Source of the DNA: a virus
Length of the DNA stretch: 64,000 nt
IMG/VR virus record: IMGVR_UViG_3300047564_002155
Coordinates: 32,001 to 96,000 of that record
Reading direction: 5' to 3' (one strand)
The notes under the pieces are model-generated. The model was not told the DNA's origin, made no database searches, and saw nothing but the letters and a program-made list of their open reading frames with translations. Each line of letters starts with the position of its first letter. The first letter of the stretch is position 1. The position numbers were made by a program, and so were the translations under genes. Positions 49,220 to 61,595 of this stretch are shown one piece after another.

Positions 49220-52200
49220 ATGAGTTTGATACACGCATTACACGAAGATACTTTGTTAGAGGTTAATGGAATACTAACCCCTATCAAGGATATCCAAATT
49301 GGCGATGTAGTAAAAAGTTACAATACTGAAGCCCAAACTATCGGTGAAAGTAAGGTTGTTTCTAAACACATCGGTTTTGATAGTGAATACTACCACATAA
49401 ATTTTAGTGATGGTTCACAATTAAAAACATCCATCAAATCACTTTTCTATTCACAAGATGGTGAATGGTTAACTCCTTTAGATGTATACCACTTAAAAAA
49501 ATCACTCCTTAACGGATTAGAAATCACCTCACTAAAATTAGTTGATGGTGATATTTCTTTTATTAGTATTGAAGTAGAACCCGACCACAACTATTTTGTA
49601 GGTAATCTATTAGTACACAACACAGGTCCTACGGGTCCTACGGGTCCTACTGGAGCTCAAGGTCCTAAAGGTCCCACCGGCTCTACCGGTTCAACGGGCC
49701 CTACCGGCGGTACTGGTCCTCAAGGTCCTATTGGCCCTAAAGGTCCAACCGGACCCGCTTCATCACCTCAAGGTGCTCAAGGTCCAAAAGGTCCTATGGG
49801 TAACTCACCACAAGGTCCAACGGGTCCTACTGGCCCAACAGGTCCTACCGGCCCAACTGGTCCTACTGGAGCTCAAGGTCCCAAAGGACCAACGGGTCCA
49901 ACTGGTCCTACTGGTCCACAAGGTCCAACAGGTCCAACGGGACCAACCGGCCCTACGGGGTCTTCACCACAAGGTCCTGCTGGTCCAAAGGGACCTACGG
50001 GTCCTACTGGCGCAACTGGCCCAACGGGTCCTACTGGTCCTACTGGCGCTAAAGGACCACAAGGTCCTACGGGTCCAACCGGTGGCACGGGTCCAAAAGG
50101 ACCACAAGGTCCTACGGGTCCAACAGGTCCAACAGGTCCTACTGGCCCTACTGGTGCAAAAGGACCACAAGGTCCTACTGGCCCACAAGGTAACCAAGGG
50201 CCAGTTGGCCCATCACCTCAAGGAGCTCAAGGTCCTAATGGACCAACAGGTCCAACCGGCCCTAAAGGACCAACGGGACCAACAGGCCCCACTGGTGCAA
50301 AAGGTCCACAAGGAGGAACAGGTCCTACTGGCCCAACCGGTGGTCAAGGTGCTACTGGCGCTCAAGGTTTCCAAGGACCAACCGGTCCTACCGGACCTAC
50401 TGGCGCAAAGGGTCCACAAGGACCCACTGGTCCACAAGGTAACCAAGGTCCTTCAGGTTCTTCACCCCAAGGTGCTCAAGGTCCAAAAGGACCAACCGGT
50501 CCAACTGGCGCTCAAGGTCCTGTTGGACCAACGGGTCCTACTGGACCAAAAGGACCTCAAGGTCCCACAGGTCCCACAGGCCCAACAGGAAACCAAGGTC
50601 CGATTGGACCAAAGGGTCCGCAGGGGCCAACGGGTGGAACTGGCCCTCAAGGTGGAGTAGGTCCTCAAGGTCCAAAGGGCGACCAAGGTAATTCACCACA
50701 AGGTGCACAAGGTCCGATAGGACCACAAGGAGCTAAAGGACCTGCGGGTTCTTCACCTAAAGGAGACCAAGGTCCACAAGGTGCTCAAGGTCCTAAAGGT
50801 CCCCAAGGAGCTAACCCACAAGGAGACCAAGGACCACAAGGTCCACAAGGTCCTAAAGGACCAACCGGGTCTTCACCTCAAGGAGCTCAAGGTCCTAAAG
50901 GACCACAAGGTCCACAAGGTAACCAAGGACCCGCACCTCAAGGTGACCAAGGTCCTAAAGGCCCACAAGGTCCACAAGGTAATCAAGGACCCGCACCTCA
51001 AGGTGACCAAGGTCCTAAAGGTCCACAAGGTCCACAAGGACAACAAGGACCTGCGCCACAAGGTGACCAAGGTCCTAAAGGTCCACAAGGTGCTCAAGGT
51101 CCGATGGGTAATTCACCTCAAGGACCACAAGGTGCAAAAGGACCACAAGGTGATAAAGGTAATACGGGCTCTTCGCCCAAAGGTGACCAAGGACCACAAG
51201 GCGCTCAAGGTCCTAAAGGTCCTCAAGGAGCTAACCCACAAGGTGACCAAGGACCACAAGGTCCACAAGGTCCTAAAGGTCCTACTGGCTCTTCACCGCA
51301 AGGTGCTCAAGGTCCTAAAGGTCCACAAGGTCCACAAGGTCAACAAGGACCCGCACCTCAAGGTGACCAAGGTCCTAAAGGCCCACAAGGTCCACAAGGT
51401 AATCAAGGACCCGCACCTCAAGGTGACCAAGGTCCTAAAGGACCACAAGGACCACAAGGACAACAAGGTCCAGCGCCTCAAGGTGACCAAGGTCCTAAAG
51501 GTCCACAAGGGCCAAAGGGTGACCAAGGTAATTCACCTCAAGGTGCTCAAGGTCCAACAGGTGCTCAAGGTGATAAAGGTAATACAGGGTCTTCACCTAA
51601 AGGAGACCAAGGTCCACAAGGTGCTCAAGGTCCTAAAGGCCCTCAAGGAGCTAACCCACAAGGTGACCAAGGTCCACAAGGCCCACAAGGTCCTAAAGGT
51701 CCTACTGGGTCTTCACCACAAGGCGCTCAAGGTCCTAAAGGTCCTCAAGGTGATAAAGGTCCAACTGGGTCTTCACCGCAAGGTGCTCAAGGTCCTAAAG
51801 GACCACAAGGTCCACAAGGTAACCAAGGTCCTGCTCCTCAAGGTGACCAAGGTCCTAAAGGTCCTCAAGGCGCTCAAGGTAATCAAGGACCGCAAGGTCC
51901 AATTGGACCTCAAGGTCCTAAAGGCCCTCAAGGTCCTAAAGGTCCTCAAGGAGACAAGGGTCCTCAAGGAGCTGCTCCTCAAGGTGACCAAGGTCCACAG
52001 GGACCAAAGGGTGACCAAGGTAATTCACCTCAAGGCGCTCAAGGTCCTAAAGGTCCTCAAGGAGACAAAGGACCACAGGGTGCGGCACCTCAAGGTGCTC
52101 AAGGTCCTAAAGGTCCACAGGGGGATAAAGGACCACAAGGTTCAATAGGTAACCAAGGAGACCAAGGTCCACAAGGTCCGCAAGGACCAAAGGGTGATGC

Positions 52201-59882: not shown

Positions 59883-61595
59883 ATGAAAGTTTTGTTTGTA
59901 GTTGGATATCAGAAAACCCCATTTAATCCTTTTGTTTGGATTAAAGAAGGAATTGGTGGTTCTGAATACGCTGTTATAAAATTAGCTCATCAAATGTCAA
60001 AGCAGGGTGATGAGGTTGTTGTCACAGGTCAAGTTGTTCCGTGTGAAGTTGAGGGTATTAAGTATATACCATATGAATCCCTTGGAACAAATCAACATTA
60101 TGATGTTGTAATTGCTACAAATTATATTCACTATATTAATGAACTTGACTCACGAGAAATAACTTTTGACAAATCTTATTTTTGGATTCATAATAATGAA
60201 TATTACGCATATTGGAATGGTCAAATATTAGAGGATTTTGGAAAAGAACATTTACAAAATTCAAGGATGACTAATGTGATTGCAGTATCGGATTACTCCG
60301 CAAAAATACTTGAAGAAAAGTATACTGAAATGGTGGGAAAGGTCAGAGTTATTCCAAACGCTATTGACCCAACTGACTGGAATGGTATCCGATTTGATAA
60401 CAAACGAAAAAACAAATTTGTATATACATCCGCTGCTGATAGAGGTTTAAAAAACCTACTTGAAATCTGGCCGCAGATTCGTGACGCCAGACCCGAAGCG
60501 ACTCTTTGGGTAGCAAGTCCACCATACGCATTAGATTGGTATGAAGACTATAAGGGATTCTATGATGGTGTTCATTTTGTGGATAATCTACCACCAAGAG
60601 AATTATATGAGTTGATTGCTTCATCGGAGTATTGGGTATATCCATCACAATACGATGAAACCTATTGTATTACAGCATTGGAAATGATGATGGGTGAGGT
60701 TTCAATCATAACAACCGATACCGGAAATTTAGCAAGTATCATTCCAGCGCGAGGTGCTGTGGTATCTTCTGAAAGTGATGTTGAAACTTTAAAAAAACAA
60801 ATTTTAGAAAAACTTGAATTTGTAGAATCGGATGCTGCTTTTAGAAAGTTTTCAAAAGAAAATGCTAAATCTTTTGTTCTAAAACAAACTTGGGAAAATG
60901 TAGAAAAAATTTGGAGAAATCTTATGAACGAAACACAACCCAACCGACAAGAACAAACTGATATGTTAGCTTTACATCCTGAATTATATTCTTACAAATA
61001 TGACAAAATTGGATGGTTGGAACGATTTGTAACCTATGATGCGAGAATTAGAGAATGGGATTTGATTTCAGATGAACAATTTGATGGATGTTTTACATTT
61101 CCATTATTTACTGAAGAATTTTGTAAGATGATTCGTGAAGAGGCAGAACATTCAAAAAAATGGACTTACAAAAGACACGAATATTATCCAACCACGGATA
61201 TGCTATTATCTGAATTGGGATTGAATGAAATTTACTATGAAGTTCTCCAAACCTATGTAATGCAATTTATGATTCACAAATTTGGTTTAGAAGGTAGGGG
61301 ATGGGATTCTTTAAATTCTGAAAACTTTTTAGCAAGATACACACCAGACACTCAAGGTCATCTTTCAATACACCACGACTCTTCTGATTTAACTTGTTTA
61401 GTCCAACTATCAGACCTTGATGAATATGAAGGTGGTGGAACTTGGTTTTGGAGACAAAAAAAATTAATAAAAGGTGGAATCGGATATTGTACGGTACATC
61501 CTGGAAATATAACTCACAAGCACGGAGCAAGACCTGTAAGTAAGGGAAGTCGTTATATTATTGTATCGTTTATGAAAAATTTGGAAAGATATTAA
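59883..61595 (+). CDS. GT4 (GT-B) glycosyltransferase fused to PLOD-like lysyl-hydroxylase domain
   Basis: 'GIGGSE', 'IPNAID', 'YPSQYDETYCITALE' (EX7E); C-terminal 'FPLFTEEFC...YPTTDM...NFLARYTPDTQGHLSIHHDSS...YEGGGT...HPGNITHKHGARPVSKGSRYIIVSF'. Confidence 0.88.
   Translation: MKVLFVVGYQKTPFNPFVWIKEGIGGSEYAVIKLAHQMSKQGDEVVVTGQVVPCEVEGIKYIPYESLGTNQHYDVVIATNYIHYINELDSREITFDKSYFWIHNNEYYAYWNGQILEDFGKEHLQNSRMTNVIAVSDYSAKILEEKYTEMVGKVRVIPNAIDPTDWNGIRFDNKRKNKFVYTSAADRGLKNLLEIWPQIRDARPEATLWVASPPYALDWYEDYKGFYDGVHFVDNLPPRELYELIASSEYWVYPSQYDETYCITALEMMMGEVSIITTDTGNLASIIPARGAVVSSESDVETLKKQILEKLEFVESDAAFRKFSKENAKSFVLKQTWENVEKIWRNLMNETQPNRQEQTDMLALHPELYSYKYDKIGWLERFVTYDARIREWDLISDEQFDGCFTFPLFTEEFCKMIREEAEHSKKWTYKRHEYYPTTDMLLSELGLNEIYYEVLQTYVMQFMIHKFGLEGRGWDSLNSENFLARYTPDTQGHLSIHHDSSDLTCLVQLSDLDEYEGGGTWFWRQKKLIKGGIGYCTVHPGNITHKHGARPVSKGSRYIIVSFMKNLERY

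Follow-up and report, generated by a model that had tools for sequence, protein, structure and literature searches.

A collagen cassette with a predicted lysyl hydroxylase and glycosyltransferases in an uncultured aquatic myophage

Known collagen-modifying systems and the phage cassette

In animals, collagen carries the structure Glc-alpha1,2-Gal-beta1-O-Hyl (glucose, galactose and hydroxylysine), made by COLGALT1/GLT25D1 and LH3/PLOD3 (PMC12003778), while mimivirus encodes the lysyl hydroxylase/glucosyltransferase L230, the galactosyl-hydroxylysine glucosyltransferase R699, the GLT25D-like protein R655 and the prolyl hydroxylase L593 (PMC9546862). Glycosylated hydroxylysine on collagen has so far been described for animals and giant viruses. 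According to reviews, collagens of phages and bacteria are for the most part left unmodified (PMC8968730, PMC3368898), and recombinant EPclA, a collagen of an Escherichia coli O157:H7 prophage, is unglycosylated yet stable (PMC3368898). Mycobacteriophage glycosyltransferases (GTs) act on the C-termini of the phage's own capsid and tail-tube proteins (Freeman et al. 2023, as summarised in PMC12619734). Here we describe two collagen genes (A and B) and three enzyme genes in a stretch of 64,000 nucleotides (the window), positions 32001-96000 of the 168-kb, 94% complete virus record IMGVR_UViG_3300047564_002155. The two collagens are probably virion fibres that would be modified by the phage's own enzymes in the host cytoplasm.

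The virus is represented in metagenomes from freshwater and estuary, and its capsid protein is 57% identical to that of Microcystis phage Mel-JY01 and 53% identical to that of Flavobacterium phage immuto; judged by its sequence, the source is an uncultured T4-like aquatic myophage. A sequence-only reading of the window had described two neighbouring genes, each encoding a Hint domain, ~1,200 Gly-X-Y residues and a related C-terminal domain, followed directly downstream by a 2-oxoglutarate (2OG) oxygenase, a GT2 and a fusion of GT4 with a PLOD-like, lysyl hydroxylase (LH) domain, all inside the virion structural region between fibre and neck genes. The open reading frames, their order and their setting were verified. 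The cassette follows capsid, PhoH and fibre genes and precedes gp13/14/15-like neck genes, with sheath and tube genes after these; in T4, the slot preceding gp13 is filled by the fibritin gene wac. Its features, with lengths in amino acids (aa), are as follows:

49220..53311, + strand: collagen A, 1363 aa; Hint domain, Gly-X-Y region with 41 Gly-x-x-Pro-x-Gly kinks, C-terminal cap
49220..49621, + strand: Hint domain A, aa 1-134, residue signature of C-terminal cleavage only
49625..53185, + strand: Gly-X-Y region A, aa 136-1322
53186..53308, + strand: C-terminal cap A, 41 aa, related to cap B
53335..57918, + strand: collagen B, 1527 aa; Hint domain, Cys-rich domain, Gly-X-Y region, C-terminal cap
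53335..53811, + strand: Hint domain B, aa 1-159
53812..54042, + strand: variable Cys-rich domain, 77 aa with 8 Cys, at the Hint/helix junction of collagen B
54043..57798, + strand: Gly-X-Y region B, aa 237-1488
57799..57915, + strand: C-terminal cap B, 39 aa, related to cap A
57933..57939, + strand: TATTTAT motif, putative late promoter of the enzyme operon
57967..58572, + strand: OG1, Fe(II)/2OG oxygenase of the PKHD / prolyl-4-hydroxylase clan
58576..59874, + strand: GT2 glycosyltransferase with a 120-aa N-terminal domain of no assigned family
59883..60932, + strand: GT4 (GT-B) domain, aa 1 to ~350 of the fifth gene (59883-61595)
60957..61595, + strand: PLOD-type LH domain, aa 359-570 of the fifth gene

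With mimivirus the locus shares viral collagens containing X-Lys-Gly, a homologous LH (L230, PDB 6ax6, E = 2e-22), a GT25-type enzyme and a prolyl-hydroxylase-clan enzyme. It differs in belonging to a bacteriophage, in the fusion of LH to a GT-B enzyme (GT4), no PLOD-type GT-A being found in the genome, in the N-terminal Hint domains of the collagens and in an extra GT2. Homologues of human LH3 (E = 5e-26) and of the COLGALT1 catalytic domain with its EDD motif (E = 7e-14) are likewise present, pairing one inverting-family with one retaining-family transferase as in humans. In contrast to LH3, the phage enzyme has neither the LH3 GT and accessory domains nor a 9-residue insert near the active site, and it is not a canonical PLOD, since its transferase is a GT4; COLGALT1 has a two-domain architecture, whereas the phage GT25 is a single 246-aa domain. 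The phage system would also be cytoplasmic rather than located in the endoplasmic reticulum, with no Y-position hydroxyproline and with Hint domains instead of proteases. Compared with bacterial intein-like (BIL) domains (PDB 2lwy; Tetrahymena BIL2, 6tmm/6y75), the phage Hint domains have the same fold, the terminal His-Asn and no endonuclease, but they lie at the extreme N-terminus with 0-5 residues ahead, most are without Cys or Ser at position 1, and none has the block-B His. EPclA, EPclB (PMC3368898) and BclA resemble the phage collagens in their X-Pro-rich, Y-Pro-free Gly-X-Y regions and small C-terminal domains; the collagens described here are far longer, periodically kinked and accompanied by dedicated enzymes, and they give no evidence of BclA-type Thr glycosylation. 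The parallel with the mycobacteriophage enzymes is that of phage GTs that would act on the phage's own structural proteins, the difference being a presumed acceptor that is an enzyme-made hydroxylysine on collagen fibres.

Probable lysyl hydroxylation and glycosylation of the collagens

The LH domain (last 212 residues of the fifth gene) matches LH3 (E = 4e-25) and mimivirus L230 (E = 6e-22), the only two proteins matched in the PDB (E = 5e-26 to 4e-21). Its residues His497, Asp499, His547 and Arg557 align with the iron and 2OG ligands of LH3 and are invariant. The collagens are rich in X-Lys-Gly, and every helical lysine stands at Y before Gly (80/80 in A, 59/59 in B). No close LH homologue was found among 50,697 GenBank phages (best identity 29%), and 234 proteins of the GT4-LH type were collected at E below 1e-30. 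The Hint-collagen and PLOD-GT neighbourhood recurs as a conserved feature of an uncultured aquatic myophage lineage: collagen lay upstream of the enzymes at PLOD-anchored loci wherever upstream DNA was available, and beside them in 80/80 OG1-anchored viral loci. In a control anchored on the neck gene, and thus blind to the cassette, phages carried either collagens together with enzymes or neither in that slot, and the collagen-less relative G006 (93% complete) had no homologue of LH, GT25 or GT2.

Enzyme and lysine are also lost together. In a set of 42 dereplicated loci spanning OG1 to neck, median Y-Lys was 0.4% (0-1.4) in the 8 cassettes without GT4-LH versus 19.5% in the 34 LH-bearing ones, 33 of which exceeded 5% (the exception being a 34-triplet fragment). 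Most of the missing Y-Lys was replaced by Gln, no difference was seen for Thr, Ser, Pro, Asp, Asn or Ala, and the otherwise conserved terminal G-x-K-G before cap A was gone as well in LH-less cassettes. On the neck tree, LH-less loci did not form one clade and gave six concordant independent pairs (p = 0.03). Homology, intact catalytic residues and this co-loss give good support to the proposed lysine hydroxylation, and the LH domain very probably hydroxylates Y-position lysines in X-Lys-Gly. As relatives without LH are also without collagen lysines, it is probable that the phage itself hydroxylates its fibres and coats them with sugar, in a manner resembling that of animals.

Glycosylation of hydroxylysine, a further part of the sequence-only reading, was supported once a GT25 that lies outside the window, and which that reading had not seen, was taken into account. 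This free-standing, single-domain, COLGALT1-like protein of 246 aa (G000:10396-11136, L226), probably the partner enzyme that the cassette itself lacks, has the COLGALT1 catalytic domain as its only significant match in the PDB, with an EDD motif at 108. Relatives encode GT4-GT25-LH trifusions of 745-830 aa, in which a GT25 32% identical to the free one of G000 stands between GT4 and LH, and more distant phages have a GT25-LH fusion with GT4 as a neighbouring gene. A free GT25 was present in 4/4 near-complete genomes with the two-domain GT4-LH; the trifusion genome had the fused copy only. GT4, which is lost together with LH, has an EX7E motif (Glu259-Glu267), and enzymes of this family are retaining and form alpha links. 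The PLOD-type GT-A family GT_PLOD (PF25342) was absent from six near-complete GT4-LH genomes including this one, in a search that gave positives in other sequences. The collagen hydroxylysines are thus likely, if less surely than they are formed, to be glycosylated by GT25 and GT4; that GT25 would add the first sugar and GT4 the second is a tentative assignment.

Two further observations concern sugar genes outside the window. A Methyltransf_24 gene lies near the free GT25 (G000 9085-9762), and a cluster at G000:137788-153374 (L227) encodes a carbamoyltransferase, two GT4, two GT2, a DXD-type GT, NeuB and a cytidylyltransferase; its products could furnish or lengthen glycans, or else change the surface of the host.

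Several observations weigh against this account of the enzymes. The GT2 tree needs only 2 changes and the OG1 tree 3, so that the neck-tree pairs overstate independence and the cassette evidently moves as a block; the honest count is 2-3 independent LH losses followed by block spread. LH-less status was moreover read on short contigs (e.g. metagenome contigs L254/L264) rather than on whole genomes. The complete genome G014 keeps GT4-GT25-LH with three lysine-poor or lysine-free collagens, and in L369-L373 a trifusion has no collagen within 10 kb (a fragment). Four marine bacterial genomes contain full-length GT4-LH 41-45% identical to the phage enzyme (L379:6891-8588, L380:6912-8582, L381:6909-8588 and L382, from Granulosicoccaceae, Aliishimia, Chromatiales and Rhodobacteraceae), and the three of these with long flanks had no neighbouring collagen. 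Mutual exclusion of GT4 and GT_PLOD fails once, in G026 (adjacent GT4 and a weak GT_PLOD match), and OG1 homologues also occur away from collagens. Two of the outcomes that the sequence-only reading had named as speaking against it are partly seen here: the marine bacterial homologues are without collagen neighbours, and one distant phage retains the enzyme beside nearly lysine-free collagens.

Some details of these loci may be added. At L314 / G014:102600-115700, GT4-GT25-LH and OG1 stand beside a Gly-Ser/Thr-Ser collagen with 0 Lys and two Gly-Pro-Ile collagens, each with no more than four evenly spaced G-P-K-G sites. PhoH and the neck gene directly flank the trifusion in L369 (8020-10302) and L371-L373. 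Far from its GT4-LH gene, the Aliishimia genome encodes a collagen with 41% Y-Lys (L396).

Collagen helices, caps and Hint domains

Collagens A and B contain 367 and 383 Gly-X-Y triplets, respectively, counts taken from the assembly and backed by similar lengths in relatives. Residue use is given for each (A: X-Pro 59%, Y-Gln 45%, Y-Lys 21%, Y-Thr 18%, Y-Pro 0; B: X-Pro 44%, Y-Gln 38%, Y-Thr 15%, Y-Lys 14%, Y-Pro 0.5%). The Gly-X-Y pattern is broken 42 times in A and 28 times in B; 41 of the 42 breaks in A read Gly-x-x-Pro-x-Gly, with Pro as the sole invariant residue of the kinks, and neighbouring kinks lie exactly 20 residues apart in 28 of 40 cases. The fibre length of 340-360 nm proposed earlier stands as an upper bound (339-363 nm), because the helix of collagen A is kinked.

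The two caps are related to each other and were found only on these collagens. No match was obtained in Pfam, PHROG or PDB, on which ground a foldon or Mtd-like cap, suspected by eye, was rejected; the cap is a probable trimerisation or attachment domain. Modelled as a trimer, the last 94 aa of A scored 0.52 versus 0.02 for the best control, above a mark reached by 21/30 solved pairs and 0/23 monomers, with at least 83% of contacts agreeing between runs and a predicted local distance difference test score (pLDDT) of at least 65. The confident contacts sit in the Gly-X-Y part, and the model therefore shows likeness to solved collagens and nothing on the cap. In a sister lineage, at another map position, the collagen beside the enzymes ends in an S74 tail-fibre chaperone and has no Hint domain, which marks these collagens as tail-fibre-like trimers; on this ground and on their place in the structural region, A and B would be long virion fibres of the phage. 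The sister lineages (L054-L080, L305-L316) have collagens of up to 2,446-2,645 aa, some ending in S74 chaperones, and their collagens, OG1 and trifusion sit upstream of the tail sheath, with no Hint caps.

The Cys-rich domain of B, for which no family was found, is a candidate for the distal fibre tip. It is 43-48% identical in relatives whose Hint B is 74-81% identical, and its Cys residues, even in number, point to disulphides or metal sites at the tip. Among relatives this domain is hypervariable, with 4-10 Cys, and in one marine clade (L177, L284, L292-L295) it is reduced to ~30 Cys-free residues.

Hint A matched PT-HINT (E = 1.7e-5, under the Pfam cut-off), and Hint B had no Pfam match. 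A joint Hint profile matched BIL2, BIL and inteins (best E = 2.4e-4), and 50/50 listed Foldseek matches of the Hint B model were Hint folds (E = 7e-5; model pLDDT 73, with the first 26 residues poor). Position 1 is Ala6 in Hint A and Ala, Gly or Ser in A-type domains generally, it is variable in B-type domains, and the block-B His is gone in both. Class 1 splicing is excluded, as the position-1 nucleophile and the block-B His are missing. C-terminal cleavage by Asn cyclisation involves His F:13, His G:6 and Asn G:7 (PMC4031507). These residues and Thr+1 are retained in 11/11 A-type domains (in Hint A, block-F His123, His133-Asn134 and Thr+1). Hint B has His158-Asn159 and has lost the block-F His together with that of block B.

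That the Hint domains are instead non-cleaving caps, retained on the fibres as folding, trimer or binding modules, is a less than even prospect. Such a role would fit the missing position-1 nucleophile and block-B His of the two domains, as well as the dependence of C-terminal cleavage on N-terminal steps in some inteins (PMC4031507). For B the further facts weaken self-cleavage itself: B-type domains are without His F:13, and their +1 residue varies and is Pro in 8/32. Pro at +1 usually hampers intein C-terminal cleavage. Non-cleaving caps are at odds with the His-Asn terminus, preserved in 45/46 domains that otherwise diverge to ~27% identity and that were gathered with a profile from which the His-Asn columns had been removed, and with the complete Asn-cyclisation set of A. 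These residue sets make self-removal likely for A and leave it open for B: Hint A would probably cut itself off by Asn cyclisation, while the same for Hint B is rather uncertain. The self-removing prodomains of the sequence-only reading thus hold on good residue evidence for A and on weaker evidence for B. Around position 1 of Hint A (window 49229-49243), the motif I-H-[GAS]-L-H is invariant in 11/11 copies, and with its two conserved His it could form a metal or regulatory site.

Proposed maturation and competing explanations

OG1 has an intact iron site (His121, Asp123, His178 and Arg188 invariant) and occurs in every collagen cassette of the phage lineage. GT2 carries the catalytic motifs DHDD (214-217) and DD (334-335); as it is retained when LH is lost, it is not a hydroxylysine enzyme. 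Thr as the GT2 acceptor was rejected, GT2 loss being uncorrelated with Thr, and the suggested BclA-like Thr glycosylation found no support, GT2-less cassettes retaining 31-32% Y-Thr. Kinks in collagen A were present in 20/20 GT2-bearing loci versus 0/2 GT2-less ones; as a counterexample, the lineage of L209 (a complete genome) is GT2-less, yet its collagen B is kinked. It is less likely than not that OG1 and GT2 form a lysine-independent branch acting on kink Pro/Ser or X-Pro, and hydroxylation of the kink Pro followed by GT2 action is a lead and not a result.

In the proposed scheme, LH would hydroxylate the Y-position lysines of X-Lys-Gly, GT25 would put the first sugar on hydroxylysine, and the retaining GT4 would add the second, replacing the GT-A glucosyltransferase of LH3. 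Each chain would then form its own homotrimer, probably starting at the C-terminal cap, and the N-terminal Hint, unable to splice, would excise itself by Asn cyclisation, so that collagen A presents its helix and collagen B its Cys-rich tip. OG1 and GT2 would act apart from the lysines, most likely on kink Pro/Ser or X-Pro. A full collagen maturation line assembled in part from components with no relation to those of animals, with a self-removing Hint propeptide, a convergent GT4 second sugar and OG1/GT2-glycosylated hinges every 20 residues (~6 nm), is rather unlikely to hold in all its parts.

A complete animal analogue, in which both oxygenases and both GTs of the window yield Y-position hydroxyproline, hydroxylysine and sugars on hydroxylysine and Thr along straight 340-360 nm fibres, is the least probable of the alternatives. 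By TM-score, the nearest match of the OG1 model is Pseudomonas prolyl-4-hydroxylase (0.72), with HIF prolyl hydroxylases also similar, and the B. anthracis prolyl-4-hydroxylase hydroxylates X-position Pro too (PMC8968730); by sequence, OG1 is nevertheless nearest to PiuC/PKHD enzymes. Pro in the phage collagens is almost confined to X (59% and 44%, against 0% and 0.5% at Y), and Y-Pro amounts to 67 in 14,007 triplets across relatives, which leaves animal-type prolyl hydroxylation, as read from the sequence at first, unsupported. Thr that does not track GT2 loss, a GT2 that persists without LH or Lys, and the 41 kinks of collagen A also speak against it. An animal-like heterotrimeric fibre of A and B is similarly improbable: A and B are always paired, their caps are related, and their spans coincide at 765/765 in one genome and come within 10% of each other in several, but they are up to 60% apart in others (rho = 0.50, p = 0.07), with matching breaks at 6/42 positions here and 0-1 in six further cases. 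It was rejected on these unmatched helix lengths and break registers.

It is also quite unlikely that the enzymes hitchhike in a hypervariable block and act elsewhere, on host lipopolysaccharide (LPS) or capsule, phage DNA or other virion proteins, with Y-Lys serving KGD/KGE salt bridges. Phage GTs in such regions are usually taken as LPS or DNA modifiers (PMC7029224; PMC12619734), the genome has its separate sugar cluster, homologues exist away from collagens, independent losses are few, and 10 and 25 KGD/E sites are present. Modification of the collagens is favoured over this by an LH domain that matches peptide lysyl hydroxylases only, by a GT25 that follows LH even when unlinked, and by a shift with LH that is restricted to Lys and Gln. 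X-Asp is unchanged, and KGD salt bridges were rejected as the sole reason for Lys.

Regarding expression, copies of the shared late promoter motif proposed earlier precede the oxygenase (57933) and the neck gene (61602); neither collagen has one directly in front of it (nearest copy at 46283). TATTTAT is intergenic in 32/43 + strand copies in the genome, and TATTTAT(A), which reads as the T4 late promoter TATAAATA in reverse complement, precedes late genes genome-wide (e.g. window 39038, 44959, 46283, 57933, 61602). The enzyme operon was also recovered within one contig of an independent sample; contigs from RNA runs of relatives cover parts of it, although such contigs cannot prove transcription. 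Upstream of the cassette (window 39085-49199) lie five Ser-rich, fibre-like genes with repeated SSSAQ motifs, for which no Pfam/PHROG family was found and whose products are possible extra glycosylation targets.

In a literature search that left subscription journals mostly outside its coverage, no publication was found that describes a lysyl hydroxylase for phage collagen or a phage collagen capped by Hint. Distinctive here are the GT4 substitution, the N-terminal Hint domains cut down to C-terminal cleavage residues, and the co-loss among close relatives. The enzymes are small and evolved for the bacterial cytoplasm, which makes them relevant to the production of modified recombinant collagen, and phages that are 94% identical at the neck gene, yet naturally carry cassettes with or without LH, offer a ready comparison of what the modification is for. 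If the proposed reading is true, the exchange of GT4 for GT-A would represent a convergent solution, and an abundant aquatic phage lineage would extend collagen hydroxylysine chemistry to bacteriophages, with a bearing on the origin of that chemistry.

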